A stretch of DNA of 36,399 nucleotides from Methanobacteriota archaeon. Its GTDB lineage: Archaea > Halobacteriota > Methanosarcinia > Methanosarcinales > Methanogasteraceae. This document shows, piece after piece, positions 2 to 36,217 of the stretch. How positions within the stretch are numbered: position 1 is the stretch's first letter; every line of letters begins with the position of its first letter. Under the pieces are notes generated by a model, which saw nothing but the letters and a program-made list of their open reading frames with translations, made no database searches and was not told the DNA's origin. The stretch spans positions 1 to 36,399 of the forward strand of contig JAYEGI010000159.1 in assembly GCA_034659035.1 (NCBI GenBank). The letters are read 5' to 3'. The position numbers and the translations under genes are program-made.

Positions 2-345
2 GTTACAATCTCTGTTGTTGGGTCGGTTATGGGGAAACGGACGCTCGGACTATATCTTGCAACCATCGCAGGGACGGGCAATTGTACTTAGGCGTGCTTC
101 TGGATCTGATTTACAACATTACTGACATACCTATCCCGGGATTGGACGGATCCATATCAATACTGCCGGAGTGGGCATACATTGCAGCATCGATTCTTTT
201 TGCGCTCCTGATGGTAATCGTGTTCGCACGAAAGTACGTGGCACACCGTTCCGGAGCCGATGTGGACGGTGCTTCTGAGTCCGCGGCGTGTGGCTGCGGG
301 TTATGCGGGGATATAGACAAAGAAAACCGAAATTATAGGTTTTAA
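2..345 (+). pseudogene. 3' part of a predicted permease (ArsP/DUF318, SO_0444-like metal transporter), cut by the window edge, with apparent frameshifts near 77-90
   Basis: Frame 2 reads VTISVVGSVMGKRTLGLYLATIAGT. Removing one base near 77 and one near 90 joins it to AIVLGVLLDLIY, two hydrophobic segments and a CGCGLC tail. Family call is from remembered motif similarity. The frameshifts could be sequencing errors. Confidence 0.5.
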
Positions 346-389
346 GGTCAAAGCCTAACTTTTTTAGGGGATTTTACTTATACACCTAA
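335..389 (+). promoter_or_regulatory. Operator/promoter array ATAGG-N14-CCTAA-N5-TTAGG-N16-CCTAA upstream of the His-rich ORF
   Basis: ATAGG 335-339, CCTAA 354-358, TTAGG 364-368, CCTAA 385-389. The N16 spacer contains AT-rich TTTTACTTATA. Mirror image of the five minus-strand copies. Confidence 0.8.
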
Positions 390-418
390 CAACTAACGAG
401 ATGGGCGGAGGTAAAAAT

Positions 419-595
419 ATGGCAGAAGTACAGGAACTCGTAAAGCATGTGAACGAAGACGTGAAGCATGTTCACGACGATATCGAACACGTGCAAAGGG
501 ATATAGAAGAGGTAAGTGCGCATCTGAAAAATCTTGATGAGCACATGCATAACCTGATGGAACATACGGAAACAATGCAAAAAGAGATTTCGTAA
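419..595 (+). CDS. Small His/Glu/Asp-rich heptad-repeat (coiled-coil) protein, 58 aa, putative metal-binding
   Basis: GGAGG at 407-411 precedes ATG 419. Heptads KHVNEDV/KHVHDDI/EHVQRDI/EEVSAHL/KNLDEHM; 8 His. Has its own operator upstream and a terminator-like hairpin downstream. Confidence 0.75.
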   Translation: MAEVQELVKHVNEDVKHVHDDIEHVQRDIEEVSAHLKNLDEHMHNLMEHTETMQKEIS

Positions 596-627
596 GGTTT
601 GAGTTTTCGTAACCATCTCTTCTTTTG

Positions 628-670
628 GATGCAGGGGATTGTTTCAAGCTTTCCTGCATCTTTTTATTTT
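628..670 (+). terminator. Hairpin plus T-tract between convergent genes
   Basis: GATGCAGG (628-635) pairs with CCTGCATC (653-660), followed by TTTTTATTTT. Confidence 0.55.
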
Positions 671-792
671 AGATCGCACTTTCTCGAGGGTCCATCAGTG
701 AGAATGGTCTGGCTTTGAGCATACTCCTCTTATCATCATTCCATAACCACCCCCCTCGCTCTGAAATGCAGGCAAACCTGTAGCAGCTTTAA

Positions 793-1191
793 CTATGCTC
801 CTGCATCCGGTTCCAGTGTCGGAAAGGAGAGGATGTGTACGCTGACACAGACCGCCATCAGAATCAGCGCAACCTTGCCGATGAAGAACGGGACTACGAA
901 CGCTGCTGAATACCCTATCGTTAAGATCAGGAACAGAATCGACAACGCCTTCGTCTTCATCGGAATTCCCCTCCCTTCGTGCCAGTTCCTGAGGTACTCC
1001 CCAAACCAGCGGTTGTAGATGAGCCAGCGGTACCACCTCTCCGAGCTCCTGGCATAGCATGCAGCAGCAAGCAGGAGAAACGGAGTTGTCGGCAGGAGTG
1101 GGAGAACGATCCCCACACCCCCGATTATCAGGGATAACGTGCCCACTATTTTCAGAAGTAACCCCGCTGCACTGTTTGGTCGTTTGTACAT
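793..1191 (-). CDS. ybaN: YbaN/DUF454 family inner-membrane protein
   Basis: Signature GGVGIVLPLLPTTPFLLLAAACYARSSERWYRWL...FGEYLRNWHEGRGIPMKTK and hydrophobic C-terminal helices. Confidence 0.9.
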   Translation of the reverse strand: MYKRPNSAAGLLLKIVGTLSLIIGGVGIVLPLLPTTPFLLLAAACYARSSERWYRWLIYNRWFGEYLRNWHEGRGIPMKTKALSILFLILTIGYSAAFVVPFFIGKVALILMAVCVSVHILSFPTLEPDAGA

Positions 1192-1208
1192 AAGATTATC
1201 TCTGTCTG

Positions 1209-1263
1209 GTAGGTAAACAAATAACCTTCCCTAATTTTTTAAGGGGAAAACGGTTTTTCCTAA
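1209..1263 (-). promoter_or_regulatory. Operator/promoter array upstream of ybaN
   Basis: Plus-strand reading GTAGG(1209-1213)-N16-CCTAA(1230-1234)-N5-TAAGG(1240-1244)-N14-CCTAA(1259-1263). Confidence 0.8.
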
Positions 1264-1402
1264 CTTATTGGTGCCTGCCCAGGTATCCGGCGGGACTCTC
1301 CCACCACATCACCGCCGACTGTGTTCACTGGAGAGACTTTTCAGGGAGGCGTACTGCTCGATCTGTTCCTTCATCCGGGACTTGAGTGGAACCGGCACCA
1401 TG

Positions 1403-1771
1403 CTACTTAGTTTCAGTCGTATTATCGGGCACATAGACCACCTCGCCGCTATCCAGTAGATATGTGGTACCCAGAACCTTTCCCATGCCGTAAACGTCCA
1501 CATCTGTTATCTTCTGGACCTCTACCGTCTCGCCCTGCTTGATTATGATCTCCATATCCGGTGTCCCAGGGTTCTTCACAATCGTCACATTCGATGTGGA
1601 TGAGACCAGTTCGGGGAGGCTGTGGTAGGTCACAAGCGCAAGCATCAGAGCAACCGCAAAGACGATCGCCACATCAAATAGGTTTGCCACGCCACTTAAG
1701 GGGTCGTCGTCCACGCCCGAACGTCCTCCGAAGTCTGATCGTCGTTTCCTTCCCATAAATCTTGTTTTCAT
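1403..1771 (-). CDS. DUF2149 family membrane protein (HmuV-like, ExbD-analogue)
   Basis: Motif DDDPLSGVANLFDVAIVFAVALM, IVKNPGTPDMEIIIKQG and C-terminal G.VVYVP. Overlaps the upstream MotA/ExbB gene by 4 nt. Confidence 0.9.
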   Translation of the reverse strand: MKTRFMGRKRRSDFGGRSGVDDDPLSGVANLFDVAIVFAVALMLALVTYHSLPELVSSTSNVTIVKNPGTPDMEIIIKQGETVEVQKITDVDVYGMGKVLGTTYLLDSGEVVYVPDNTTETK

Positions 1772-2352
1772 CGATCAGTCACCCCCTCCTTCGCAATCGA
1801 TAATTCTGCCATGTACTCCATGTCATCCAGGTCCTGCGAGTACCACCGCTGCCTGACGCTTGCAACCGTGAGCGCGACCGCACCGATCAGAAGCCCGACC
1901 ACAGTCGATGTGAACGCAATCACGAGATTGTTTGCCAGTTGTTCGATGTTTCCTGCAGTGAGTCCGAGGAGGGCCGGACCCAGTGGTATCAGCGTTCCCA
2001 TCAGGCCCAGCATCGGACCAATCCGTATCAGAAGGCGGGTATTTCCGAGTTTCCTTCCGGCTTCTGCCTCATACTCCTGGAGCAGCCGTCCGATCTTCAC
2101 AGAGAGCACGTTTTCATCGAGGGAGTTTTGGTGCTCTGCGACCAGTCTCTTCACTGCCCCACAAAAACCACTCAGATGGCCTCCGTTAAACTTGTCATTG
2201 AATACTTTGCTCCGTTTTGAGTATTCAGCGATCATATCGCCTGCGAACACGAAACAGAGAGCAACCAACAATATCAGCAATATCAGCACAGGATACAGCA
2301 TTGCATTGTTGATCGTAAGCAGAATCTTCATAAGCTCGTCCAGCAGTTCCAT
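1768..2352 (-). CDS. MotA/TolQ/ExbB proton-channel family protein (HmuU-like)
   Basis: RIGPMLGLMGTLIPLGPALLGL...LANNLVIAFTSTVVGLLIG signature with three predicted TM segments. Confidence 0.92.
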   Translation of the reverse strand: MELLDELMKILLTINNAMLYPVLILLILLVALCFVFAGDMIAEYSKRSKVFNDKFNGGHLSGFCGAVKRLVAEHQNSLDENVLSVKIGRLLQEYEAEAGRKLGNTRLLIRIGPMLGLMGTLIPLGPALLGLTAGNIEQLANNLVIAFTSTVVGLLIGAVALTVASVRQRWYSQDLDDMEYMAELSIAKEGVTDR

Positions 2353-2475
2353 TTTATATCACCTTTCCACATATTCCAGACAAAAACATCCCGGTCAGTT
2401 CTTTGTAGTTGAGAGCATAATTGAAAACTTCAATAAAAACACTCTGATTTTTATGGTGGTATGCACATGTTCGAA

Positions 2476-2597
2476 CATTCGTGCAATTCGCGTCATTCGC
2501 TACCATTCGTGATCTCTTGGTGTCGATTTTATGCCAACGGCTACGCTCGCTACGCTCACAGTCACGAATGCCATATTTGAACGAATGGCACGAATTG
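2476..2597. repeat. Imperfect inverted-repeat (REP/MITE-like) element built from ATTCG/CGAAT units
   Basis: Left arm CATTCGTGCAATTCGCGTCATTCGCTACCATTCGTGA (2476-2512); right arm TCACGAATG...ACGAATGGCACGAATTG (2562-2597); GCTACGCTC duplicated in the loop. Confidence 0.6.
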
Positions 2598-2712
2598 AGT
2601 AAATCGACAGAAATCTGCTGTGGTCGAATCGATCTCACACAAGCGGTAAAAGCCACCGGATTGCATTCCCTACCGATGTCGTTTATGTCAATCGCGTTGT
2701 TATGCCTCTGCT

Positions 2713-3852
2713 TCATCGTCTGCTCCTGTTAGCGATTCTGATTCTCCCTCGCATAAATCCGATACTGGTCATGAGCAGGATGAAGAGAAATCCCGGGATC
2801 ATATCGCTCACCGGAAATCCCTTGATCGATATATCCATCTCGCTTACGGGCAGATACGCGGGGACGAGCAGGATCGAGAGGAAATAGAGAAGCCCGAAGA
2901 ATATCATCATGCTTCCCAGATTCGAGGGCTTCTTGCTGAACCGGGTTCTTCGTAAAACCGTGGTTATCACGATAATCGTCGAAAAGAACACACCCCCAAC
3001 TAGTAAACCAGTTTTGAGAGCACTCATACCCGCGATCATAAGAAATGCACAGGTCAGAAAGATCGTTGCAAGCGATACAGGACATGGTAGCGCCATCAAG
3101 AGAAACGTTCTCCTACTGACATCTTTTTTTGTCTGGTTCCACTTCCTGACAGTGTAGAATCCAACAACAAGGAGCGATATCGCTATCGTCAGTTGAAACA
3201 CCCCGAATGCAAGCCCCATCCCAAAGAGGGTGCTTATCGATTCGTAAAGTGCATCACCAGCAACACTGATCACTGCACACATCAGAAACGGAACAACAAG
3301 GTAGACCGATGCGACTGCGAGAATCTCACGTGTATTCAGTCTGGAAAATCCCATCCCAAACGCTGCCTTGCTTGAGAACTTGAGCATACCGACGAATATC
3401 CCGAAGATCATAATGCCGCTTATGAGTGACTTCTCCTTGCACTCCCGTATCTTCGCATCGATCCACGAGTCGTCATAATCCAAATTGTTCTTTCTGTAGC
3501 CATCTCTTGCGAGTTCGTAGTATCTAAGAGCGGTATCACACTCTTTCTGTCCGGTGCAACAGTCACCTGCAAGACGGTAGCTTGAAGCAGCGGATATATG
3601 GTCCCCCGCCAACTCGAAATTTTCGGCTGCAAGAACGTAATGCATTGACGCATTCGTAAGGTCACTTGCGTCTCTGTAGCGCAGGGCAATTCTCCCATAC
3701 AAGACGCCTGCACCATCATAATTTTCCAATTCCGATAACTGTTCGGCATATCCGATGAGTTCCCCTGTGTCGGCATCCGCCTGATCCGCCTGACCGCTTG
3801 CAATCGCCATCGATGAGACGAGCAGGAGTAGTATGCATATTATCCTCTTTAT
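2713..3852 (-). CDS. DUF2162-like (HmuT-like) multi-pass membrane protein with an N-terminal signal peptide and TPR/alpha-SNAP-like helical domain
   Basis: C-terminal ~230 aa has about seven TM segments with K..FG.G and ALPCPV motifs and lies before MotA+DUF2149. N-terminal part has Ala/Tyr helical repeats. Start uncertain: ORF track gives 3909, but the signal peptide begins at ATA 3852 (IKRIICILLLL). Confidence 0.7.
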   Translation of the reverse strand: MKRIICILLLLVSSMAIASGQADQADADTGELIGYAEQLSELENYDGAGVLYGRIALRYRDASDLTNASMHYVLAAENFELAGDHISAASSYRLAGDCCTGQKECDTALRYYELARDGYRKNNLDYDDSWIDAKIRECKEKSLISGIMIFGIFVGMLKFSSKAAFGMGFSRLNTREILAVASVYLVVPFLMCAVISVAGDALYESISTLFGMGLAFGVFQLTIAISLLVVGFYTVRKWNQTKKDVSRRTFLLMALPCPVSLATIFLTCAFLMIAGMSALKTGLLVGGVFFSTIIVITTVLRRTRFSKKPSNLGSMMIFFGLLYFLSILLVPAYLPVSEMDISIKGFPVSDMIPGFLFILLMTSIGFMRGRIRIANRSRR

Positions 3853-3856
3853 CTCA

Positions 3857-5779
3857 TCACTTCCTTCTCGAATATCCGAATATTGTAAACACCAATAACC
3901 CCACCACAATCAGTGTCGCCATCATTGGCGTAGCCTTGATCGATGGAATCTCGATTCCCGAATCGAACCTCTTGATCGTCTTCACCTTCCCGGCCACCTT
4001 CTTCCCGCGAACCATCTCGCCCTTCTCCGAAGTATCCGCATAATTCGAGGCGGTCTCGTAGGTGTTGTTGGAACCGGCGATCTCGGAAAGCCCCTTCTTC
4101 ACATACACATCCTCTGCATCATTGCCTGTGACGGTATTCCCAACAAGCGTGGTGTCGTGCGCCTCGGTTGAGATGCGGATTCCGTTGGCAACAGAGGCAT
4201 CATCATTGTATGTGGAACCTTCTTTGTTCTCTGATGCGTTATTGTACCGGAGCGTGTTGCCGGGACCTCCCACGTAGATTCCGGGACCTTTGTTGTTGTT
4301 TACGATGTTGTTCTCGATAGCAAAGAAACTTGAGAGCTTGCACCGCAGAACGATTCCACCCGCCCCGTTTTCAGTCACCCTGTTGCCGGTTATGTTGTTG
4401 TACTTCGGCTTCATCTTCGTGTATATCCCGGCTTTTGTATTACCATAAACCGTGTTATTTGAGAGCGTGTTGTACTCTCCACCGTAGATAAAAATCCCAT
4501 TCCCCCCGTTCTCACAGCTCGTGCCCCTGCCTTTGTTGTGATGCACGAGATTGTTGCTGATCGTGCTCTCGTACACATACTGCATCTTGATGCCGTGAGT
4601 CGTCGTATCATCGATGTCGTTGCCGTTGTGATGCACGTTGCAATAATCGATCGTATTGTTCTTGACGATATCTCCTTTGATGTCATTTCCCCTGAGGTGA
4701 ATCCCATTGCAGAAGTTTTTGATCTCCAAATCTTTTATAACCAGATCATCGTGTCCTGAATTAAAGATTCCCGCACGCTCGGTCTCACTATCAGTGCAAT
4801 CTCCGGAAATCACGCCGTCCAGCGTGTATCCATTGCCATCGATCACGACACCATCCGCACCGATCACGAGACCGTGTCCTGACATGCAGTTAAGATCATA
4901 GTTAAAGGTGTAGCTCTCAGTAACGATATCGCCACACGCAAATATCATTCCGGGATCGCTCAGAGCTACGCACCCGCAGGTGGGGCTGCCGCGTTCTGTT
5001 TCATCCAGCACCCCGTCACTGGATTGCGTCCCTGATGCGGGGCAGGGATGCGTGCAGGGACAGCCACCGCCGCTGGAATCGGAATCGAGATTAGAATCGT
5101 TGTAGCCCTGCGCAATCGCACAGGAATTGTCACTGCCTGTGTTGCCTGTCCCTGATTCCACCACGATGTCGCCGCGTCGATTGTTGCAGACCGTGTTTCC
5201 GTGGAGAATATTTTCGCTTGAGTTGTCTATGTTTACCCCCATGCCGTTTACCGTCGTTATGCTGTTGTATCCGAGCATGTTTCCATTTGCAGCGTTTGAG
5301 AGAAGGATTCCGTGTCCACCATCGCCATAACCGACGGTATTTCCTGTTATGTTGGTGTGTGTCGAAGAAAATAGCCAGATGCCGCTTCCTTGCGTGTAAT
5401 CGATGATATTATCCCTGATCTCTCCGTTTTTGGCGTCTTTGAAATATATTCCGGAGCAGAACCCGCTTATCGTGAGGTTCATTATCATCACCCTGTCGCA
5501 TCCATCGTTGTGGATGCCTTCCCCGTCGTCGCCATGCTCATTGATTGTGATACTGTGTCCTGCGCCATCTACCGTGATCCCGTCCGCACCGATCGCGAGA
5601 CCGTATTGTTCCTGGCAGATCATGTCTTCGTTGAATATGCAGCTTTCAATCACGGTGTCGCCGCATCCGTAGTCTGTTCCTGTGACAACGCCGATGCAGC
5701 CTGCATGCGCGTTTCCGGCCAGAAAGAGCAGTAGCAGCACCGCAGACATCCGCATCCAGCCATTCATTCTTCGTTCCAT
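3857..5779 (-). CDS. Secreted Cys-rich right-handed parallel beta-helix protein (two beta-helix units, NosD/PbH1-like) with a C-terminal TM anchor
   Basis: Signal peptide ending GNAHA; GI.L/N.I..N repeats; CGD.V.ES..FN.D..C caps; ends LIVVGLLVFTIFGYSRRK. Start placed at ATG 5779 after a GGAGGGGAG RBS. Confidence 0.85.
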   Translation of the reverse strand: MERRMNGWMRMSAVLLLLFLAGNAHAGCIGVVTGTDYGCGDTVIESCIFNEDMICQEQYGLAIGADGITVDGAGHSITINEHGDDGEGIHNDGCDRVMIMNLTISGFCSGIYFKDAKNGEIRDNIIDYTQGSGIWLFSSTHTNITGNTVGYGDGGHGILLSNAANGNMLGYNSITTVNGMGVNIDNSSENILHGNTVCNNRRGDIVVESGTGNTGSDNSCAIAQGYNDSNLDSDSSGGGCPCTHPCPASGTQSSDGVLDETERGSPTCGCVALSDPGMIFACGDIVTESYTFNYDLNCMSGHGLVIGADGVVIDGNGYTLDGVISGDCTDSETERAGIFNSGHDDLVIKDLEIKNFCNGIHLRGNDIKGDIVKNNTIDYCNVHHNGNDIDDTTTHGIKMQYVYESTISNNLVHHNKGRGTSCENGGNGIFIYGGEYNTLSNNTVYGNTKAGIYTKMKPKYNNITGNRVTENGAGGIVLRCKLSSFFAIENNIVNNNKGPGIYVGGPGNTLRYNNASENKEGSTYNDDASVANGIRISTEAHDTTLVGNTVTGNDAEDVYVKKGLSEIAGSNNTYETASNYADTSEKGEMVRGKKVAGKVKTIKRFDSGIEIPSIKATPMMATLIVVGLLVFTIFGYSRRK

Positions 5780-5790
5780 CTCCCCTCCAT

Positions 5791-6681
5791 TCACCCTCCG
5801 AAACTCCCGACCCGCTCTGCAGACGCCATCTCGATGAACCAATCCCACCCCTCCCACACCATCCCGCTCTCCATCACCTCATCAGGCACCGGAACATCAG
5901 GGATCACCGGCACAAAACCCGCGTTCTGGGAAAATGACCTCTGCATACCGGGAGAAATCAGATAATCAGCCACCTTCTTCACGTCTTCGCCATACCCTTT
6001 CTTCAGCAGCATCACCTGCGGGAGTGCGAGCGCACCCTCTTCCGGCAGGCAGAAGGAAGTATTTGCCCCCCTCGAAAACTTTGCAAACGCGAGTGGCATG
6101 ATGCCGATCTCGTACTCGCCATCACCCACCGCACGATTGACATCTACAGGAGCGCCTTTGTATGAAACATCGTCCGCAACAAACTCCCTCCCCTGCTCGC
6201 CATGGCGATGGCTGAAGAAATTTCGAAACAGGATCGCTGGCGGCGTAGTCTTGCCTGTGCAGAGCACTTTGCCCCTGAACCGCTCATCAAGGAGCGACCT
6301 CCACGAGTCAGGAGGGTTCTCCACGTCTTTGTTATGGAATATGAGAAGCGGCATGACAAATACCGGTTTTAAGACCCACTCGCAATCAACAAAGCCTCCT
6401 GATTCAACAAAACTACCTGTGTCATACCTGTAATCCGTATCAAAGTAACCGGTCTCCACCAGATAATCCCGCTCTCTCATGATCTCCGGGCGGGTGACGA
6501 TGAGAAGATCAGGTATCCTATCCACGTTACCAGCCATTATCTCTTTCAGCATGCCATAATCATCTGCACGATGCCCTTTGGACGGGATTATCACCTCGGA
6601 ATCGGGACAACGTCTCTTTATATCAGTCGTCACATTCCTGCTAATATTTACAGGAACTGAAACATATATTCTACTGCACAT
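5791..6681 (-). CDS. ABC-type solute-binding-fold protein (AfuA/PotD-like) lacking an evident signal peptide
   Basis: PPDSWRSLLDERFRGKV, AVGDGEYEIGI, PEEGALALP and DYLISPGMQ are typical of class II SBPs. Start ATG 6681 follows GGAGGT. Confidence 0.75.
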   Translation of the reverse strand: MCSRIYVSVPVNISRNVTTDIKRRCPDSEVIIPSKGHRADDYGMLKEIMAGNVDRIPDLLIVTRPEIMRERDYLVETGYFDTDYRYDTGSFVESGGFVDCEWVLKPVFVMPLLIFHNKDVENPPDSWRSLLDERFRGKVLCTGKTTPPAILFRNFFSHRHGEQGREFVADDVSYKGAPVDVNRAVGDGEYEIGIMPLAFAKFSRGANTSFCLPEEGALALPQVMLLKKGYGEDVKKVADYLISPGMQRSFSQNAGFVPVIPDVPVPDEVMESGMVWEGWDWFIEMASAERVGSFGG

Positions 6682-7486
6682 AGTTACCTCCTGATAACTC
6701 CTTAAGTATAAGTGCTCTATCCGCACCCCAATCCGTATCATCCAGCACCCTCCCCCCTCTTAACTCCTGCCTCATGTCCACAAGGAACCTGTCAATACAA
6801 ACAAGAAACCTTAGTTGCTCCCTCTCGGTGCCGTTGGGTCGGATGAGTTTTAACATCGACCCGTTCTTCATTATCAGTCTCTTCTGTGCGGTAAGCATGA
6901 TTGTTGGATCGTGTGTTGCAATAAGAACCATCTTCCCCTCGGTTGCGAGCAGTTTTATCCCTCTCGTCTTGTCGATGCCCGCATTCTCGATCTCGTCTAT
7001 CAGAACGACAGGCGCATCGCTTATGAGTGCTGCATCGGCTATCATCAATGCTCTCGACTGCCCGCCGCTGAGCGAAGAGAGATGAGTATCCATCGAGATA
7101 GGCTCTCCTGCAAGCTCGTTTGTAAGCGCTATCACCTTTCGCCCGATCTCACCGTCTCTTATCATTAGCCCTCTGCTATTCGCATGGAGATTTACAAAGT
7201 CCCCAACATTCAGGTCCATCACAAAGTGCATATTCTGCGAGAGACTCGCGGTTATCCGGGTGCTGAATGGGTCTGCCACCGCACCATCAACGAGCACCTT
7301 TCTTCCGGACTGCGAGTCTCCGTTTGCAAGCTGCTCGATGTCAGAGAGGAGAAGACTCTTCCCGGAACCTGTGGGACCAGCTATCGCCATGACATCGCCC
7401 CTTCGGATCACCACCTCCTCTATTCCTTCCGGTTCCCCGTTTTTACCAGTTCCTGATAATATTCTCAGTTCATTGATGCCCATCAT
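6671..7486 (-). CDS. ABC-family ATPase
   Basis: Walker A GPTGSGKS, signature LSGGQ, Walker B VLIDEIE, H-loop ATHD. RBS GAGGTGA before ATG 7486. Confidence 0.9.
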   Translation of the reverse strand: MMGINELRILSGTGKNGEPEGIEEVVIRRGDVMAIAGPTGSGKSLLLSDIEQLANGDSQSGRKVLVDGAVADPFSTRITASLSQNMHFVMDLNVGDFVNLHANSRGLMIRDGEIGRKVIALTNELAGEPISMDTHLSSLSGGQSRALMIADAALISDAPVVLIDEIENAGIDKTRGIKLLATEGKMVLIATHDPTIMLTAQKRLIMKNGSMLKLIRPNGTEREQLRFLVCIDRFLVDMRQELRGGRVLDDTDWGADRALILKELSGGNYVQ

Positions 7487-7499
7487 GCCTGATATCACC

Positions 7500-8195
7500 T
7501 CAAACCTCCTGCACATCCATCTTTATCACGTTTCCCATCTGGTACTCCGGACCGATCAATGTCGCGCCTTCACAGTACGAGCAGACGGCAGCAGGCATAT
7601 CAGACCTGAGTTCCCTCTCGGTAAGCGTGTCCACTTCCGGCGCATCCGCAACCAGCCGCTTGAGGTTCAGCGCACCCATCCCGGTCAAGCCGTTCATCTC
7701 GACTATTTTCGCGTGGGGGTTGACCTTCTCGACGTTGGCACGGAAGACTTCCCGCTCTGCCTGCGATACCATGTCGCCCTTCGTTATGATCACCACATCC
7801 GCGGTTGTGAGCATGGGGCCGATCTTTCTGGGCGTCTCAATCCCGCTTAAGTTGTCAACGACTGCGATAGCCATGCAGCCCTTGATTGCGGGCGCACACC
7901 GGTGGCACAATCCCGCAGTCTCTACGATGGTGATATCCGCATCATGCACCTTACCGAATTTGAATATCTCCTCCACGTTGACGACACCATAATGGTCCGG
8001 GCAGACGTAATCGCTCAGCCCCACCACAACAGGAATTCCGAGCTTCTCCTTGTAGGTTGCGCCGTCAGAGGTCTCGAGGCAGTCTATCTTTCCGACGACC
8101 ACCTTCAAACCGTCCTGCTGCTGCAGCCTGATCAGATGTATCATGGAGAGCGTCTTACCTGAAGAAGGGGGTCCTGCTACGGTTATGAACTTCAT
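7500..8195 (-). CDS. HypB/UreG/CobW (G3E) family P-loop GTPase, putative metallochaperone
   Basis: GPPSSGKT, CPDH, ETAGLCHRCAP, TKGD (G4) and C-terminal CSYC. Confidence 0.88.
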   Translation of the reverse strand: MKFITVAGPPSSGKTLSMIHLIRLQQQDGLKVVVGKIDCLETSDGATYKEKLGIPVVVGLSDYVCPDHYGVVNVEEIFKFGKVHDADITIVETAGLCHRCAPAIKGCMAIAVVDNLSGIETPRKIGPMLTTADVVIITKGDMVSQAEREVFRANVEKVNPHAKIVEMNGLTGMGALNLKRLVADAPEVDTLTERELRSDMPAAVCSYCEGATLIGPEYQMGNVIKMDVQEV

Positions 8196-8292
8196 CTTGC
8201 TCCGAATGATTCGCGCTTTGAGACTTTGTATGTAAAAGTGGTATGTAAAAGTCTTTTAGTATCTTTTGGAATTAGATTCGGAAAAATACATG

Positions 8293-8364
8293 GAATACAG
8301 GAAGCACAGATGGATACATAGGAAAACAACAACTCTCTGTTAACCTCTGTGTCCTCTGTGGTTA
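8293..8364. repeat. Degenerate inverted-repeat element of the CACAGA/CTCTGTG type
   Basis: CTCTCTGTTAACCTCTGTGTCCTCTGTGGTT on the right, with a degenerate partner AATACAGGAAGCACAGATGGATACATAGGA on the left. Confidence 0.5.
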
Positions 8365-8397
8365 ATCTTCGTTGCCATGACCCAAAATATCCTTGTC

Positions 8398-9147
8398 TCA
8401 TCTTCCCCTCATCAGAAAGACGGCGATAACCACTGCCAGCAGTGCGAATGCAGACTCAAAGCCGGTCGTGGCTGGCGATGTTGACATCGCAGTGGTCGGT
8501 GTCGGGGCCGGATGCGCTGCCCGGTAATTGCTCACAAGTCCGGAAAGTCTTGTTAAATTGTGGTATCCCGGATGAAGCGTACTATCCGGGGAAACCCAGC
8601 ACGGAATACCTTCAATACCTGCGTATATGTCCGTCTTATCACCCTCCTTCTCAACTTTCAGGTAGTGGGCTCTACCACCGATTTGCAGGATCGCTACTCC
8701 ACTACCCTCATCAAGCGTTATTCCAGCCGAGTTATTCTCATCAAAGATGTGGATGGTCATATCGTCGTCTGATTTGTCGATTTCTGCGCTTTTTACCCAA
8801 CCTGCATGATAAGTATTCTCAAGATACTCAAAAAGTCTACTACCCTCTCCTGTGACATCGTCCCAGCTACACAGGTACATGCTCACATTTCGGCATGCTG
8901 CCCCATTCTTATTGCAGTCTATATGAGTCACATTCGCAAAAGCATCGCCAAACTCCTCCTTCTGCCTGGCGCACCACCCGCACTGCTCGGTGCCATACAT
9001 CGCCCAGCCATCGGCAGTCAATTCATCAGCCAGTTCGCGTGTATCGATGCTGGAATTTAAAATTGCATCGGTCGCACAAGCGTTTCCTGTCAGTAATGTT
9101 AAAAACAGTGCGATTACCAATATCTTGCAGATTACATCTCCTTTCAT
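8398..9147 (-). CDS. Secreted thioredoxin-like (CxxC) protein with an inserted 85-aa module and a PGF-CTERM-like tail
   Basis: MYGTEQCGWCARQKEEFG...IDC...C and GIEGIPCW...GY resemble the VKOR-associated Trx-like domain. PT linker, then TGFESAFALLAVVIAVFLMRGR. Confidence 0.8.
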   Translation of the reverse strand: MKGDVICKILVIALFLTLLTGNACATDAILNSSIDTRELADELTADGWAMYGTEQCGWCARQKEEFGDAFANVTHIDCNKNGAACRNVSMYLCSWDDVTGEGSRLFEYLENTYHAGWVKSAEIDKSDDDMTIHIFDENNSAGITLDEGSGVAILQIGGRAHYLKVEKEGDKTDIYAGIEGIPCWVSPDSTLHPGYHNLTRLSGLVSNYRAAHPAPTPTTAMSTSPATTGFESAFALLAVVIAVFLMRGR

Positions 9148-9209
9148 ATTATTATGCCTCTTCTATTACCCGATATCCGGGGTCGTCATATTTCAACCGC
9201 ATTTACCTG

Positions 9210-9264
9210 TTAGGTATACAATAACCCTGTCCTAAAAAAATTAGGTTTTGAGGGAAAAACCGAA
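9210..9264 (-). promoter_or_regulatory. Operator/promoter array upstream of the Trx-GTPase-ATPase-SBP-beta-helix-DUF2162-MotA-DUF2149 unit
   Basis: TTAGG(9210-9214)-N16-CCTAA(9231-9235)-N5-TTAGG(9241-9245)-N14-CCGAA(9260-9264). Confidence 0.85.
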
Positions 9265-9301
9265 CCATTCTCTTCTGTGCTACTGCATGAAACAGCTTCA
9301 C

Positions 9302-11200
9302 CTACCGCCATTTCATGAACCTTCCGATCAGAAACACACCGGCAAACATGCAGATCACAAGTAACATCTCGTAGAAAGACACATCAACCCGGCGGAACGA
9401 TGTCTCGGTGTTGAGAGTGGAGCCTTCAGTGGACCTGGATGTTGGCATCGCAGACGGTTCCTCTGCCAGGCCGGTAACCTCGATTACAGGCACATCGGTT
9501 GAGGCTGCATAACAGTAACCACTACCCGCGAGTGATACCCACGGCGCGCCGAGAACTACCTGTCCGGGAGTTGTAAGCACAATCACATACTCAGTCTCGT
9601 TCGTCTGGTTCGCAGCAAGAAGGGTATGTATCGTCGGGTCTCCTGATATCAGTTCCGCACCCGGTGGCAGGACATCTGCCAGGTTGATAGTCGCGTCCAT
9701 ATTCCCTGCGTTTCTGACACTCAGCGTAACCGTAACCGTGTCGCCTTCCCGTATCTGCTCAGGATGCGCCGTCTTGTTAACAGTGATACATACCCCGTCC
9801 ACGGTTATCACATGACCATTCGACCGCACGCTGATATTCGTTTCACCCATCACAAACTCTGCGACCGCACCCGGAACCTCAAATACCCCTGGTCTTTCCG
9901 GCGCTATGTGATATGAGAAGCACAGAGACTCCGATGGTGCGATATTAAACATCCATCCCGGAGTCTCGTTGCCACTCAATCTGAAACCGGTTGGGACGGT
10001 ATCGTTCAATCTAACTTCGAGATCTCTTCTCCCAGTATTCTCGAGATCGATGCGCACCCATACCGATCGATCCATCGATATATGATCGTTCACCGTTTTT
10101 GTAAGTTTCAGATCAAATCTCGGCAGCACCAAAATCTCGGTTGAGGCAGACTCGGTGTACATCACACCCTTCTCGTCGAATCCTGTGACGTTGACCGAGA
10201 TTGTATATGGCTCTCCTTCGATATCATTGATCCCTGTTGGGACACGCAAACGTGCGTAAACCAATTTTTCAGACTCCTCGGCATTTTCCGAAGGAGCATA
10301 TATCCTTCGCTTGCTACCCTCGCCCGTAACCTCCATAGTAGGGATGTCGTTATGGAGATCTCCATCCCTGATTTTTATGGTTGCTGTGTCCCCACTGATC
10401 TTTATCTCGACGTTATTATCACCGCTCTTGACCGTGATTTTGTCATCATCTGATAATCTCAGAACTCGTTGACTACTCAGATAACCCACCCAGCCGAGTT
10501 TAAGATCTTCCCTGAGATACTTCAGGACGTCAGCGTCATCGCCCCAGTTGAACAGATAATCCCCCTCCTCCTCCGCGAGGAGGTTGCTGGGATGGTTGGT
10601 GAGATCACTTACCGCCTGAAGATCGCCGGGGTCAATCACAACATGCACATTCTTGAGTTCAGTATCGCCGATGTTCTCGATCTCGACAGTGACACGGATC
10701 TCTGAATCCTGTGGAGAGTAGACCTCACAGCCGGTTGTAATCTCAAGCGAGATCTCCGGCTTTGCCCGCTCGTAGAACGTGATTTGTATCAAAGGGTCAT
10801 CCCACTGTGTCGGAGTTTCCGACTCCGGATACTCATCAGTCTCGTTTACTATCGCGATTATGATTTCATCTTCCCAGTTCAGCCAGTCGCATACGTCCAT
10901 ATTCGGATCTATATGAAATGTCATCTCATTCACGCATGATGCGTTCAAGCACGACTCGTCGAGCAACTCGTCGCCTCGCGAAAGTTTCAGATATACCAGA
11001 TCAGTCTCTGGCACATAGTCTGTAAACTTGACTGTGTAGTTATTCACACGGTATGTTTCGCCTTTGTGGAGCGACTCACGTCCCGTGTCCGCCCAGTAAT
11101 CCGAATCGTCGGGATCAAGTGCGGACGCGGCGTCCACGAACACAAGGCACATCATGACCATTAGCATCAGCACCAGTCGGTGCACCGCTCGATCATTCAT
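9302..11200 (-). CDS. Cell-surface BatD/DUF11-like multi-Ig-domain protein with a C-terminal TM anchor
   Basis: Signal peptide; repeated V.V.I.N.G...L.D.VP.GF Ig-like modules; Ser/Thr linker; TM plus basic tail. Confidence 0.7.
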   Translation of the reverse strand: MNDRAVHRLVLMLMVMMCLVFVDAASALDPDDSDYWADTGRESLHKGETYRVNNYTVKFTDYVPETDLVYLKLSRGDELLDESCLNASCVNEMTFHIDPNMDVCDWLNWEDEIIIAIVNETDEYPESETPTQWDDPLIQITFYERAKPEISLEITTGCEVYSPQDSEIRVTVEIENIGDTELKNVHVVIDPGDLQAVSDLTNHPSNLLAEEEGDYLFNWGDDADVLKYLREDLKLGWVGYLSSQRVLRLSDDDKITVKSGDNNVEIKISGDTATIKIRDGDLHNDIPTMEVTGEGSKRRIYAPSENAEESEKLVYARLRVPTGINDIEGEPYTISVNVTGFDEKGVMYTESASTEILVLPRFDLKLTKTVNDHISMDRSVWVRIDLENTGRRDLEVRLNDTVPTGFRLSGNETPGWMFNIAPSESLCFSYHIAPERPGVFEVPGAVAEFVMGETNISVRSNGHVITVDGVCITVNKTAHPEQIREGDTVTVTLSVRNAGNMDATINLADVLPPGAELISGDPTIHTLLAANQTNETEYVIVLTTPGQVVLGAPWVSLAGSGYCYAASTDVPVIEVTGLAEEPSAMPTSRSTEGSTLNTETSFRRVDVSFYEMLLVICMFAGVFLIGRFMKWR

Positions 11201-20480: not shown

Positions 20481-20645
20481 TCTGTCCAAACTCCCTGAAA
20501 AAGAAAAAAGAGGGATTTATGAACACGCCATTTGCAGCTATTTTTTTTGCCGCAACTTTCGCACCCATTTCCCTTCTCCTTGCGTCTGTTCACCACTCCT
20601 TTCAGAGTAGTTTTCAGACTTCGCTTTATCCGCTTACCCAATCCA

Positions 20646-24869: not shown

Positions 24870-24947
24870 TCATCCAAAAATTCTGCAGGAATTACAAAAA
24901 GAGTTCATAACAAGATTTATTCACCGCCATTCCAATGATCGCAGTGG

Positions 24948-30083: not shown

Positions 30084-30270
30084 AATTATACCTCCCATTT
30101 ATTCTTGAGTTGTTCTCTACTTGAAATACCAAACTACGGGAAAAGTCCCGAGATTGTCTTGCCACAAACGCGTTGGTACACGGCTCTGGCAGCTGTTGTC
30201 AGGGTTAGTAATGTTTCATTGATCACCCCCAGTAAATTTATTTTATTCATAGTATAATGCATATTACATG

Positions 30271-31245: not shown

Positions 31246-31247
31246 TT

Positions 31248-33109: not shown

Positions 33110-33126
33110 TTTCCCAGGTTTATCTC

Positions 33127-34083
33127 CTACCATGCAGTTTTCCTCCAGTTCGCTCCTATGATCACGGCGTCAAGGATGTTTATATCACAATCGTTGTTCA
33201 GGTCTGCTCTGTCTGCTCCCTCATCATCCCAGACATAGTCGCCACATCCACCGCATGTCGCTCTCCAGTACTTCCCTGCAATGACCGCATCAAGGATATT
33301 GACTTCGCCGTCTCCGTTCACATCACCTGCGATATAAACGTTGACCGGCATGAGAGTCGAGTTTGGGAGATCTCCATTGTCATTCACTGTCAAGCAGACC
33401 GTGAAATGTTCATAACCTGCCCCATTCCATGGACTGCTCGAATAAACATGCTCAACCGTCTCACCTGTTCCGTTCTCCCCATCACCAAAGTTCCATCCAT
33501 AGTTTATGACGCTCCCATCGGTGCTTGGGTCGTAGGATGCGGAGCCATTAAAGATCGCCCTGCCGAGGTCGCCTATGTTGTTATAGCGATGCAGAGATCG
33601 CGGGACGGCAACAGGGGGACGATTCAGAACCGCTGTGCCACTATCCACCGTTGACGGTATGGTGGTTTCAGTCGCGCTTGCTTCTTTTAACTCATTGACA
33701 GTCAGGTTAAGCGTGCTTGTTTCGCAAGCGTCGCCGACTGCTTCTATTAGAAGGTCTGCAAGTTTAACATCACCACTTAATCCATCGCCGTAATCCACAC
33801 CTCCAACCTTCACAAGACCGATTGTGTTATTGATCACCGGATAGAGATTACCAAAATCACTGTTATTGACGGCAGTAATATAAACTACGGAAGGATCGTA
33901 ATCAATATTGATGTTAGCAACCCCGAGATTGCTCACGTTATTGATTACGACCGAGATGGTGGCATCATCGCCTGGTTCAAAGAAGACATTACTTACTGAA
34001 ACGGTGGTTGCGGCAGAGACTGGCACGATTAGCAATGCCAGAAGCAGCACAACGGACACCGTTATCGAACTTTTCACATTCAT
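33127..34083 (-). CDS. Cohesin + PKD + dockerin adaptor
   Basis: FNGSASYDP...YGWNFGDG...H.Y PKD motif; dockerin GDVNGDGEVNILDAV / ADLNNDCDINILDAV. Confidence 0.88.
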   Translation of the reverse strand: MNVKSSITVSVVLLLALLIVPVSAATTVSVSNVFFEPGDDATISVVINNVSNLGVANINIDYDPSVVYITAVNNSDFGNLYPVINNTIGLVKVGGVDYGDGLSGDVKLADLLIEAVGDACETSTLNLTVNELKEASATETTIPSTVDSGTAVLNRPPVAVPRSLHRYNNIGDLGRAIFNGSASYDPSTDGSVINYGWNFGDGENGTGETVEHVYSSSPWNGAGYEHFTVCLTVNDNGDLPNSTLMPVNVYIAGDVNGDGEVNILDAVIAGKYWRATCGGCGDYVWDDEGADRADLNNDCDINILDAVIIGANWRKTAW

Positions 34084-34103
34084 ATATCATCACCTCTTTT
34101 ATC

Positions 34104-36107
34104 TCAGTGAAGCACCTCAAATCCAGATTCGCCCATCACATACTTGGCAAGATACATCGCATCATAGAGCGTCACCTTCCCATTTCCACTCACTTCGCCG
34201 ATCCCTGCACTCATCGCCTCAAATCCGGGTTTTCCAAAGAGATGCTTGCCAAGATACATCGAATCATAAAGTGCTACTTCACAGTTCTCGCTCACATCTC
34301 CGTTTAATATGACCTTTAATTGTACACTTATCGATCTGTTCACGTTTCCAAAGACATCGGTTGCACACACGGTCAGGTTGTGCGGCAGGTAACTTTCATT
34401 GTGGCAGATCGTAGTCCCGACAGGCGCATTAGTAGCCGCAGTCCACACATCAGTGCCCGGAACACGAGTCATGGGCTGATCGGGTAGACCGCCGATTGTG
34501 GTAAGATTGATTGTTACGTTAACAACTTCGCTTTCATCTATCACGGTAGCATTCAGTCGGGATGTTTCTCCCCATCTCGGGTCAAAATCCGTATCTTCGG
34601 GAATGGACACAGGAGATGCTATCTGGTGTATCACTGAAGGTGGGGTTAGTTCTGTTACGACAAATGTCCCATTGAGTGAAACTGTCGGTATGGATATCTC
34701 GCCGGGTCCTGCTTCCTTTAATTCAGTGATGGTCAGGTTCAGGGCACAGGTGTCCCCCATATTGCTTATCGATTGTAAGGTGACATCCGCAAGTTTCACC
34801 TCGCCGCTTTGTCCTGGCGAAGATATCTGGTATACACCGATCCGTGTCACGCCTGACGAATTATCGATGGTTGAGACCGCGAAATCAAAATCGCTGTTGT
34901 CAACGCAGGTGACGTGAACCACCGATTGATTGTAGCTGAGAAAGATGTCCGCGGTTCCGACATTGGTGATATTGTGAATCATGATAGAGGTGGTAGCGTT
35001 CTCCCCTGCTATCAGAGTAACATCGCCGATGCCGATGATTATCACCGGATGAGTAGTGAAGTTGTGTCCTGCACTCTGTACGGAATTGCTGCTTGGGTCT
35101 GTGCTATTTACAACGTAGTAATAGGTGGTGTTCGGGAGCAGTTCGACAAGAACGATGCTGTGATCGATCACATACGATGCATTGTGCGCCACCTTTGTGT
35201 AATTGCCCGCCTGTGTGCCATACCTGACCAGACTATCACCGGGTTCGCTGGTCTCCCATGATATGATTGCGGAATCCTTTGTTATCGATGTAACACCTAT
35301 GTTGGCAATCACGGGAGCTGTTATATCTATGGTTATATTCTGCACAAATCCGACTGCATCCATCTCTGCTTGCGTTACTCTGTGTTCAAGCCCGGTGAAA
35401 TTACCTGTGCGGTCGCTGGCGTTGAAATGAAGTATGTTCCCCAATCCGATATGGGCGAAGTTTGTAGAGAGGAGGTAGTAGTTGGAGCTTTCGTTTGTCT
35501 CGGCAATGAAGACTTCGCTGGTGTTCAGATTCGTTATCGTCACATTGGGATTGTTCACAGGTATACCATCGCTATAATCAACAAAACCAGAGATATCGAG
35601 CTGGGTTCCATTAATTTTTACTGTGCCATCATTGACCAGAACACCCGGGATTCTTACGCCAAGCGGATCGCTTATTATAATATTGGTCAGGGATAAATTG
35701 GCGGTTCCCGGTTCTATCGCCTTAAACGTGATCGTTGCAAGAACACCTGGATCGAGTGCACCGTTTTCCACGCCCATTCGCATTTCACCATATCCAACCA
35801 GTCCGAGGGTGTTGTTGATCTCGTTTGTTATTATCATGGTTGATGCGCCGTCATGGCTCAGGAATGTACCGCTGACCTGATCGGTTGCGTTTAACAGCAT
35901 GTTACTAAAGTACAGGTCATATTGTGCACCCATCACCTCGTCGCCTGCCGGGTCCACCGTTATATTCACGGTGAATAGGTCCCCTTGCAAAACATTCTGG
36001 TTAGAAGGTTCAACGTTTATCACCGATGCTGCATAAGCCGACAGGGGGATAAGCGCGATTATAAATAAGATCGATACAAGCGCCGATCTTTTTATCTTTA
36101 TTTTCAT
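34104..36107 (-). CDS. Scaffoldin: cohesin, X, FN3-like, cohesin, 'Y' module, dockerin
   Basis: Same modules as 26751..30083; dockerin GDVSENCEVALYDSMYLGKH / GEVSGNGKVTLYDAMYLAKY. Confidence 0.88.
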   Translation of the reverse strand: MKIKIKRSALVSILFIIALIPLSAYAASVINVEPSNQNVLQGDLFTVNITVDPAGDEVMGAQYDLYFSNMLLNATDQVSGTFLSHDGASTMIITNEINNTLGLVGYGEMRMGVENGALDPGVLATITFKAIEPGTANLSLTNIIISDPLGVRIPGVLVNDGTVKINGTQLDISGFVDYSDGIPVNNPNVTITNLNTSEVFIAETNESSNYYLLSTNFAHIGLGNILHFNASDRTGNFTGLEHRVTQAEMDAVGFVQNITIDITAPVIANIGVTSITKDSAIISWETSEPGDSLVRYGTQAGNYTKVAHNASYVIDHSIVLVELLPNTTYYYVVNSTDPSSNSVQSAGHNFTTHPVIIIGIGDVTLIAGENATTSIMIHNITNVGTADIFLSYNQSVVHVTCVDNSDFDFAVSTIDNSSGVTRIGVYQISSPGQSGEVKLADVTLQSISNMGDTCALNLTITELKEAGPGEISIPTVSLNGTFVVTELTPPSVIHQIASPVSIPEDTDFDPRWGETSRLNATVIDESEVVNVTINLTTIGGLPDQPMTRVPGTDVWTAATNAPVGTTICHNESYLPHNLTVCATDVFGNVNRSISVQLKVILNGDVSENCEVALYDSMYLGKHLFGKPGFEAMSAGIGEVSGNGKVTLYDAMYLAKYVMGESGFEVLH

Positions 36108-36152
36108 TTTGAATATCGCCTCTTTTGTATCCGGAGAATGAAAGATAGATTG

Positions 36153-36217
36153 TTAGGTGGATAAATATCATACCCTAAAAAAATTCGGGCTTGCTGACAA
36201 AACCTAATGATATTCGG
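36153..36217 (-). promoter_or_regulatory. Operator/promoter array upstream of the scaffoldin operon
   Basis: TTAGG(36153-36157)-N16-CCTAA(36174-36178)-N5-TTCGG(36184-36188)-N14-CCTAA(36203-36207)-N5-TTCGG(36213-36217). Confidence 0.85.

Follow-up and report, generated by a model that had tools for sequence, protein, structure and literature searches.

The stretch analyzed here (the window, 36,399 nt of contig JAYEGI010000159.1 in assembly GCA_034659035.1) comes from a metagenome-assembled genome (MAG) of a Methanobacteriota archaeon of the Methanogasteraceae, and six copies of one operator-like module stand in front of its operons. The module has the pattern TTAGG-N16-CCTAA-N5-TTAGG-N14-CCTAA (55 bp). 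With the 16/5/14 spacers fixed and no more than three mismatches allowed in the 20 specified bases, exactly six matches were found in the window, starting at 335 (minus strand) and at 1209, 9210, 19672, 24745, and 36153 (plus strand), each with one or two mismatches and none with all four words perfect (0/6). The expectation was 0.00 (no match in 100 dinucleotide-preserving shuffles), and exact TTAGG-N14..18-CCTAA pairs numbered four against 0.06 expected. The original prediction of a six-copy array with constant spacing at these starts was thus confirmed, as were its placement of the N16 spacer on the gene side (6/6 modules) and its period of 29-31 bp, which is correct when measured from centre to centre. 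The longer ends that it gave for three sites (19736, 24809, and 36217) include one extra, weaker word. All six operon starts seen are covered by the six modules, and internal promoters may also lie in gaps such as 8196-8397, 20301-20645, and 30099-30270. The modules, given as 72 alignment columns in gene orientation, and their operons are as follows.

322 to 393, plus strand: module 1, with ATAGG at 335-339, CCTAA at 354-358, TTAGG at 364-368, the TATA-like N16 at 369-384, and CCTAA at 385-389 (nhmmer E 2.9e-13)
401 or 419 to 595, plus strand: target of module 1, a His-rich coiled-coil peptide of 58/64 aa, with GGAGG 6 nt before the ATG at 419
1205 to 1276, minus strand: module 2, the weakest of the six, with plus-strand words GTAGG at 1209-1213, CCTAA at 1230-1234, TAAGG at 1240-1244, and CCTAA at 1259-1263 (E 3.3e-08)
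793 to 1191, minus strand: target of module 2, a DUF454 gene whose ATG at 1191 is alignment column 86
9206 to 9277, minus strand: module 3, the best nhmmer match (E 1.2e-14), with plus-strand words TTAGG at 9210-9214, CCTAA at 9231-9235, TTAGG at 9241-9245, and CCGAA at 9260-9264
9147 down to 1403, minus strand: module 3 operon, encoding a thioredoxin (Trx)-like protein of 249 aa, a CobW GTPase, an ABC ATPase, SBP_bac_6, NosD (666 aa), TPR-DUF2162, a 120-aa protein, an ExbB-like protein, and DUF2149
19668 to 19739, minus strand: module 4 (nhmmer E 1.6e-13), followed by a leader of 155 nt
19512 down to 9302, minus strand: module 4 operon, encoding NosD (447 aa), a CARDB/beta-helix protein (1972 aa), an ExbB-like protein (241 aa), DUF2149 (111 aa), and a DUF11 protein (632 aa)
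24741 to 24812, minus strand: module 5 (nhmmer E 1.2e-12), followed by a leader of 224 nt
24517 down to about 19938, minus strand: module 5 operon, encoding a beta-helix/CARDB protein of 729 aa, then proteins of 336, 201, and 120 aa without clear family
36149 to 36220, minus strand: module 6 (nhmmer E 4.2e-13)
36107 down to 25678, minus strand: module 6 operon, described overall as seven cohesin/dockerin/PKD/rhodanese/PGF-CTERM proteins; the first gene encodes a 667-aa protein with a Pur_ac_phosph_N/fn3-like domain, and the rest, to 25678, proteins of those cohesin to PGF-CTERM types and a 1115-aa cohesin/Big_5 protein

The window sites gave a gap-free alignment with six others of the same genome when all were oriented by their downstream genes. 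Column conservation was assessed on 77 unique gapless sites from this genome and from fetched loci of relatives, collected with a model that was itself built from gapless sites. Across the 77 sites, the conserved block occupies columns 14-69 (TTAGG-TTTT-N5/6-AAAA-CCTAA-yTTTt-TTAGGG-cA-...-TATTTnTATA-CCTAAC) and has a core of 56 bp that reads TTAGGTTTT-N5/6-AAAACCTAA-(T-rich N5)-TTAGGG-N16-CCTAAC, while the columns beyond it carry almost no information and an extra CCTAA at columns 4-8 is weak. The proximal CCTA was conserved in 100% and TAGGG in 96-100% of these sites, which is the word of DtxR-type half-sites. Among 97 unique regions, exact TTAGG-Nx-CCTAA pairs were distributed as N16 (74), N14 (19), N13 (8), N15 (3), and N4 (8), and exact CCTAA-Nx-TTAGG pairs as N5 (54), with none at N4 or N6, indicating that the N5 and N16 spacers are rigid and that the distal spacer is flexible (13 to 15). 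In divergent promoter pairs (e.g., G050 L041:6258-6351), the distal palindrome is common to both modules, with its dyad at column 25.5. Judged by sequence, the functional pairs may be either TTAGG-N14/16-CCTAA or CCTAA-N5-TTAGG. Near module 5, extra TTAGG words were also seen at 24806-24810 and 24866-24870, which lie upstream of the proximal word (24746) by 60 and 120 bp, and a one-mismatch TTAGG-N4-CCAAA at 24865-24878 is by itself not above chance.

A TATA-like TATTTnTA lies at columns 54-61, within the N16 spacer, and the ATG of the DUF454 gene falls on column 86 not only here, at window 1191, but also in G050, which belongs to another family (f2). This fixed distance in two families supports the earlier proposal of a TATA box inside the spacer; it also fits a leaderless mRNA with the TATA centre near -28, and the transcript of module 2 is probably leaderless. 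Leaders of about 25-225 nt with GGAGG-type ribosome sites precede the five remaining genes that directly follow window modules. The genome's tRNA-Lys gene is served by an ordinary TFB-recognition element (BRE) and TATA box (aaaag-tttatatc) 29 nt before the mature end; this promoter has the same geometry as the module TATA and contains no CCTAA words. If the DUF454 ATG is taken as the start, the CCTAA-type words lie at about -72/-68, -53/-49, -43/-39, and -22/-18, and the TATA at about -32/-25. The word centres at columns 16, 35, 45, and 66 are 19, 10, and 21 bp apart, which places the four words roughly on one helix face, and binding to that face may be cooperative, as had been proposed. A bacterial -10/-35 reading of the spacer was discarded, the host being an archaeon according to its PGF-CTERM domains, an S-layer protein (PF07752), and its named relatives.

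The whole assembly (2.41 Mb, 293 contigs, GC 49.1%, 85% complete) was searched for further copies. CCTAA is rare in it (566 copies), and sharp spacing peaks were seen for TTAGG-N16-CCTAA (8), CCTAA-N5-TTAGG (6), and CCTAA-N26-CCTAA (7), the remaining spacings from 0 to 40 giving 0-1 in the TTAGG-Nx-CCTAA and CCTAA-Nx-TTAGG series and 0-3 in the CCTAA-Nx-CCTAA series. An nhmmer profile of 12 sites recovered 17 module copies at E<=2e-6, the next matches being weak self-overlaps. These copies lie on six contigs (window 6, C273 5, C66 2, C184 2, C218 1, and C25 1), and 16 of the 17 are followed on the same strand by an open reading frame (ORF) of at least 50 aa starting within 400 nt, the exception being C273:19337. 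Among 121 genomes sampled from the order (Methanosarcinales), the sequence-only model R1 matched 44, namely 26/26 in f1, the family to which the present genome belongs, 5/6 in f6, 10/20 in f2, 2/33 in f4, 0/34 in f3, and 0/1 in f5; within f2, matches were found in genera g12 (8/8) and g16 (2/2) and in neither g5 (0/8) nor g14 (0/2). The strict pattern CCTAA-N5-TTAGG-N16-CCTAA with at most one mismatch was present in 30 of 41 genomes, and the reversed control mostly gave 0 per strand per genome, with a maximum of 3. The module is conserved across genera. The original prediction had held that the motif should be retained at orthologous promoters, and the module was indeed kept before the Trx-like gene in two relative MAGs, named 'Methanosarcinales archaeon' and 'Methanobacteriota archaeon', whose Trx-like proteins are 80% and 88% identical to the one encoded here.

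Two explanations without a dedicated sensor bear on these copies. The repetition of one sequence at many places in the genome could mean that a small mobile repeat left these copies behind and that they have no regulatory role; yet there is no similarity beyond the 56-bp core, the orientation is strictly tied to the downstream gene, the distance to the start is fixed, and the module is kept at orthologous promoters across genera and families, so that this explanation has a negligible chance of being right. The module could otherwise be a lineage-specific core-promoter architecture, for example one whose flanking words are recognized by a variant transcription factor B (TFB) or TATA-binding protein (TBP), or a strong promoter made by intrinsically bent DNA with phased A/T tracts. 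Such a view would account for the most invariant sequence, ACCTAAC (C64, C65, T66, and A67 at 100%), lying between TATA and start where core-promoter elements sit, and for the T- and A-tracts that recur about every 10 bp (columns 19-23, 29-32, and 39-42). However, only 17 copies exist in the genome, all before functionally coherent genes, such words are missing from the tRNA promoter of this genome, whose BRE/TATA is ordinary, and the link to dtxR and the N4 operators behind modules (both described below) would be left unexplained; this architecture is therefore considered very unlikely. The sites are almost certainly a real regulatory module.

The genes behind the modules were compared within and beyond this genome. 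Outside the window, its modules precede genes for two CbiX-FmdE-dockerin proteins, a 28-aa Cys-rich peptide, a small zinc-ribbon protein, a triple-FeoA protein followed by a DUF2325 protein, and a DUF3793 protein followed by an S-layer gene (PF07752). In five distant relatives (G029 and G033 of f6; G050, G042, and G046 of f2), the module stands before the triple-FeoA gene in four of the five genomes and also before feoA-feoB, CbiX-like, flavodoxin, DUF2325, DUF454, DUF3793, Trx-like, NosD, and His-rich peptide genes. The triple-FeoA protein is found behind a module in all three families. A genome scan for sites at iron genes, which had been proposed as a check, was thus positive in relatives, with modules before feoA-feoB, the triple-FeoA gene, flavodoxin, and CbiX-like genes. 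Together with the CobW GTPase, the ABC transporter with SBP_bac_6, the ExbB/DUF2149/DUF2162 sets, and the His-rich and Cys-rich peptides, such genes point to iron and are what an iron-starvation regulon would be expected to hold, with ferrous-iron uptake, metal-handling functions, and a flavodoxin that carries electrons without iron; an iron-responsive module is a well-favored interpretation. An ESM Atlas look-up of the DUF2325 protein returned other DUF2325 clusters alone and no functional lead.

Several smaller features accompany these genes. The 28-aa Cys-rich peptide (7 Cys; beginning MGCECDGNCAHC) is encoded behind a module at L001:9834-9920 (G000:C273, G000 being the present genome); its gene also lies behind modules in several genomes of the same genus, with a variant form in other genera, and the peptide may bind metal. 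A PadR gene near the module of this peptide was considered as the regulator and set aside, as in G005 the next module comes directly and the two genes are not neighbors. At G000:C273:18848-19410 (L001:12848-13410; also L017:1878-2311), two modules lie 490 bp apart and have long leaders with a common GGTAGACTCGAAAAAA. A conserved ORF for a zinc ribbon of about 45 aa (CPKC...CSTC) comes after the first, and behind the second there is no ORF of at least 50 aa within 400 nt; small RNA genes behind C273:18849 and C273:19337 were considered and rejected, at least the first having the conserved zinc-ribbon ORF instead. In the window and five loci (88.9 kb), the only Rfam matches were to a tRNA and to part of a group II intron, neither of them near a module, and none was to a riboswitch or known leader; the intron match is the catalytic domain at L002:8988-9091 (G000:C218; 46 bits, over the cut-off). 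The His-rich coiled-coil peptide (52-64 aa; …VKHVHDDIEHV…HLKNLDEHMHNL…) recurs behind modules in the window (401-595, plus strand) and in G050 C54 (f2), and other short coiled-coil peptides lie behind modules in f6.

In addition, operons whose first genes encode beta-helix/NosD/CARDB proteins have a conserved element, TGCGCGAGATTCAcaGTCTCGCTGTAA, immediately behind their predicted start. Two copies are found in the window:

19629 to 19654, minus strand: predicted leader hairpin of the GCGAGA-N7-TCTCGC type, just past the predicted start of the module 4 transcript
24705 to 24730, minus strand: copy of the predicted leader hairpin, after module 5

Further copies were found at L003 ~4200-4230, L003 ~3240-3270, L004 ~2025-2050, and L077 ~1755-1785. 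The element has 11 predicted pairs with a consensus of -7.0 kcal/mol, and one pair changed on both sides, so that covariation support is weak and a DNA palindrome for a second factor is equally possible.

The half-site word led the original prediction to a DtxR-family or other metal-responsive repressor, and a candidate of this family was found in relatives. A DtxR-family gene is present, one in each, in all 26 other genomes of f1. Its product has 152 aa and two domains, matching Fe_dep_repress (PF01325, 63.4 bits) and Fe_dep_repr_C (PF02742, 58.4 bits) in Pfam, both over the cut-off, and its nearest solved relative is MntR of Bacillus subtilis (E 1e-22). The winged-helix and metal-binding dimerisation domains and the conserved ligand positions place it in the DtxR/MntR family. 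Residues D8, E11, H77, C99, E102, and H103, which we take to be the metal ligands, are invariant in 13 orthologs, and two further segments are kept in the orthologs, the recognition segment PPSV.EM and the tail FC..G.H.C at the C terminus. In MntR, a Glu is aligned with C99; in DtxR/IdeR, which prefer iron, a Cys holds this position, and the candidate likewise looks iron-tuned. The tail, W-L-x-H-F-x-x-F-C-x-x-G-x-H-x-C (alignment A2 columns 129-144), is present in 13/13 orthologs and without counterpart in B. subtilis MntR, and it may form an extra metal or redox site.

In the loci read, the operon order is module, feoA, feoA, feoB (GTPase part), feoB (membrane part), a gene for a 150-aa membrane protein, a FeoC-like gene, and dtxR. 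As the last gene, dtxR lies 2.9-3.3 kb behind the module on the same strand in the 13 genomes whose loci were read (G001, G003, G004, G005, G006, G011, G013, G016, G020, G014, G059, G050, and G040), and at about 3.1 kb on the same strand in nine more known from coordinates alone (G008, G046, G034, G094, G022, G101, G017, G042, and G024), giving 22 related genomes in total. In G012, only 481 bp separate the start of dtxR from the end of its contig; the gene of G029 (f6) belongs to no feo operon and has no module within 4.2 kb; and one fetched locus proved to be a paralog. The G004 ortholog (G004:C100:19026-19482) is in two pieces with two in-frame stops (TAG and TAA), being a pseudogene or an assembly error.

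Orthologs, defined by at least 58% identity (next best matches had at most 52%), were distributed as f1 26/26, f6 4/6, f2 7/20, f4 1/33, f3 0/34, and f5 0/1. Across 120 other genomes, 36 had both module and ortholog, seven the module alone, two the ortholog alone, and 75 neither. Six of the seven genomes with the module alone are MAGs 57-87% complete, and the seventh is a complete genome with weak module matches and a 52% paralog; the two with the ortholog alone are MAGs 57% and 61% complete. The mismatches are incomplete MAGs except for G085. The complete genome G040 is the sole ortholog carrier among the 33 genomes of f4 (67% identity), also has the FeoC-like gene, and carries a single module, with exact 14/5/16 spacing, directly before its feo-dtxR operon, so that the reader of the module is most simply sought in that operon. 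Operon position in 22 genomes and co-occurrence both support the earlier guess of a DtxR-family regulator, and the DtxR-type protein of the feo operon is judged the likely reader of the module.

The same operon offers a second candidate, namely the FeoC-like winged-helix protein (85-95 aa, Cys-rich; Pfam FeoC match E 3.4e-05, above the cut-off), which might bind the module alone or with the DtxR-type protein. It is encoded just before dtxR in f1, f2, and G040, and its co-transfer with the module would be expected as for dtxR. However, the words match the DtxR family, and a search with a single query, in which so short and fast-evolving a protein is easily missed, did not find FeoC in 4/4 module-carrying f6 genomes, one of them single-contig and 94% complete. 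Three of these four have a DtxR ortholog (58-61%), and G033 has a 50% hit with an in-frame stop. This absence favors the DtxR-type protein, although the ease of missing a short protein again applies. We know of no FeoC site and of no demonstration that FeoC binds DNA, and binding by FeoC is regarded as improbable.

A closer comparison with canonical DtxR boxes revealed both agreement and misfit. The original prediction described the DtxR/IdeR box as TTAGG-N9-CCTAA, which needs correction: in the IdeR-DNA structures of PMC8464063, a single CCTAA word is recognized by each monomer of IdeR, a dimer reads TTAGGNNNNCCTAA and occupies words 1 and 3 within the 19-bp box (TTAGGTTAGSCTAACCTAA), and the authors redefine the unit as TTAGGNNNNCCTAA. 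The one-dimer unit is TTAGG-N4-CCTAA, and N9 is found only as the gap from the first to the last word of the 19-bp box, which holds two dimers. The IdeR/DtxR iron box and the module have the same 5-bp word, CCTAA/TTAGG, and the expected logic is the same, the metal-loaded protein repressing iron-uptake genes. The module differs from the 4-bp spacing of the iron box in that its words are 14-16 bp apart when inverted or 5 bp apart when everted, its associated protein has two domains without the SH3-like third domain, and its target is an archaeal TATA/BRE promoter. As its spacing is not the one that defines operators of the DtxR family, the module is a variant and not a standard iron box.

The canonical unit nevertheless occurs beside the modules of relatives. 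Of 77 modules, 12, all of them from relatives, have TTAGG-N4-CCTAA (14 bp, at most one mismatch) within the 54 nt that follow, each other spacing from N0 to N12 giving 0-1 of 77. The twelve N4 operators, at distances from the module that vary from column 77 to 93, precede feoA operons of f2 and g4, a CbiX-like gene, a DUF2325 gene, a small G029 peptide gene, and some unnamed genes. The 19-bp two-dimer box gave two matches at four or fewer mismatches in the 2.41 Mb and two in 466 kb of fetched loci, none with fewer than four mismatches, and the two in the present genome are not near a module. These two near-canonical boxes (G000:C134:8675-8693 and C186:6180-6198) have a common TTAGGTGAA(C/T)CTA, with four mismatches to the 19-bp consensus and one to the 14-bp unit, and, lying away from modules, they could be operators for another target.

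The misfit of the canonical dimer makes room for another kind of reader. Some other regulator that forms multimers, such as a protein of the Lrp/FFRP type or an activator, could place its dimers on the 15-bp CCTAA-N5(A/T)-TTAGG palindromes, which are spaced by three helical turns and of which the promoter-proximal one borders the BRE on its upstream side, leaving only the leader N4 operators to the DtxR-type protein. The rigidity of CCTAA-N5-TTAGG (54 exact pairs, none at N4 or N6), the A/T-rich spacer (T40 and T41 at 95-96%), and palindrome centres 29 and 31 bp apart all agree with such a protein. PMC2995911 describes archaeal Lrp-type sites two or three turns apart, a dimer site of activators a few bp upstream of the BRE, and the wrapping of about 100 bp around three dimers by Ss-LrpB. 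It also portrays the Ss-LrpB and Ptr2 arrays as 15-bp palindromes with A/T-rich centres two to three turns apart, one abutting the BRE, a geometry that the module resembles, and attributes to them cooperative binding and wrapped DNA. Nevertheless, the module half-site is exactly the DtxR-family word, which would have to be chance, the gene content suggests a metal rather than an amino-acid sensor, the only module of G040 precedes the feo-dtxR operon in a family where modules occur in just 2/33 genomes, and no Lrp-type gene was seen in the module-controlled operons read, no genome-wide Lrp search having been made. A reader of this kind is thus held to be unlikely, and it is the leading alternative to the DtxR-type protein.

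Taken together, the six sites are best read as the promoter-operator module of an iron-starvation regulon controlled by a DtxR/MntR-type repressor, to which we assign a probability of roughly 0.68. With Fe(II) plentiful, the two-domain repressor (about 152 aa), whose gene closes the module-bearing feoA-feoA-feoB-FeoC-dtxR operon, would bind the words, and several dimers would assemble over about 60 bp (~ -72 to -18), covering BRE and TATA. With these covered, TBP and TFB would be unable to load; such occlusion is given a slight preference. When iron is scarce, the apo-protein would leave and all operons, that of the repressor included, would be transcribed. At some promoters in relatives, the canonical TTAGG-N4-CCTAA in the leader could act as a second block. 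Binding of the protein to the module, iron as the signal, repression, and the number of dimers are all parts that we infer.

Several points weigh against this account. The window lacks a regulator gene, as originally stated, and the whole assembly also gave no match to a DtxR-family gene with PF01325, PF02742, or the ortholog query, PF01325 detecting only two weak winged-helix matches in unrelated proteins of 540 and 261 aa; nor was FeoB found, and with an assembly 85% complete both may have been lost from the strain. The genomes compared are kin, forming about four clades, so that the co-occurrence table overstates their independence, and the FeoC-like winged-helix gene, which shares the dtxR operon, has nearly the same distribution. 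The window holds six TTAGG-N4-CCTAA matches at two or fewer mismatches against 8.35 expected, no enrichment of N4 operators was seen in the present genome, and the modules themselves have no N4 pair. The model of gapless sites used for collection favored fixed spacing and inflated the conservation within the 72 columns. The sign of regulation is assumed from the behavior of the DtxR family. Furthermore, a canonical dimer spans 9 bp between inverted words, whereas the inverted pairs of the module are 19-21 bp apart and its 10-bp pair is everted; a crystal-type dimer fits neither spacing and dimers on the distal pair would collide, leaving the binding mode unexplained. Canonical dimers anchored on every word were rejected by reasoning alone, since two of them placed on the distal pair would have 4 bp of one helix face in common. 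The options include back-to-back dimers with one good word each and dimer contacts that fix the N5, another oligomer, or another protein as reader. Complex prediction for two copies of the DtxR ortholog with the triple-FeoA protein, conceived as a bridge between dimers, scored 0.00, which is evidence neither way.

Archaeal metalloregulators give further points of comparison for the proposed DtxR/MntR-type repressor. The haloarchaeal TroR/Idr/SirR proteins and the predicted archaeal FetR regulons involve DtxR-family repressors of iron-uptake genes, and the TroR words are the same as those of the module. The feoAB genes are reportedly a predicted core target of 'FetR' in the work of Leyn and Rodionov from 2015. 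The regulon described here differs from those of the TroR/FetR type in extending far into surface-protein and ExbB-like gene sets. The Haloferax TroR motif, as given in PMC10783522, is TTTAGGC-NNN-CCTAAA, and TroR/FetR-type motifs, as far as described, are single short palindromes, whereas the module has four to six words in fixed register around the TATA. The archaeal DtxR homologue MDR1 of Archaeoglobus fulgidus appears in PMC3074139 as a metal-dependent repressor of its own operon with the consensus GTT-N8,9-AAC, unlike the module words. According to PMC2995911, MDR1 blocks the recruitment of RNA polymerase while TBP/TFB stay bound, whereas the module words flank and precede the TATA, suggesting TBP/TFB occlusion. 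Our literature searches, beyond whose reach lay supplementary motif lists, returned no description of the module or of iron regulation in archaea of the anaerobic methanotrophic (ANME) type. Like the module, MDR1 has an arrayed target, as it binds several adjacent operators.

The host itself appears to have a high iron demand. Its genome has 11 ORFs with at least four CxxCH motifs, and multihaem cytochromes with 32, 16, 16, 13, 11, and 11 such motifs are encoded on C181 (the 2319-aa ORF with 32), C7, C15, C244, C83, and C292, respectively. These large cytochromes fit a lifestyle of extracellular electron transfer and a high iron demand, and because they are encoded, the host is probably an ANME-2-like methanotroph. 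In window 1403-19512, two sets of MotA/ExbB-like and DUF2149 genes, one of them with TPR-DUF2162, lie in module-controlled operons together with NosD/CARDB surface proteins, a CobW GTPase, and an ABC importer, and these sets look like an energised uptake machine.

A bolder version of the account, which we advance tentatively and consider doubtful as a whole, holds that a DtxR-type sensor reads DNA in a new manner, with dimers on CCTAA words two turns apart flanking the TATA and one turn apart back to back, forming a 56-bp clamp that competes with or traps TBP/TFB, and that the regulon is an undescribed iron-acquisition apparatus of methane-oxidising archaea. If true, the parts of this apparatus would be ExbB/ExbD-like motors (MotA_ExbB, DUF2149, and DUF2162), NosD/CARDB beta-helix surface proteins, cohesin-dockerin assemblies, secreted CbiX-type chelatases, and the triple-FeoA protein. 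Iron is a major need of cytochrome-rich methane-oxidising archaea, on whose iron sensing and acquisition nothing was found in print. For archaeal transcription, bacterial-type repressor words locked in register with the TATA would provide a natural case of competition between a repressor and TBP/TFB, and for the DtxR family they pose a structural puzzle of familiar words at the wrong spacing. As a marker, the module would allow the iron-starvation genes of uncultured lineages to be listed by scanning, including many surface proteins and ExbB-like motor sets, and it ties those genes to one candidate regulator that is open to purification.

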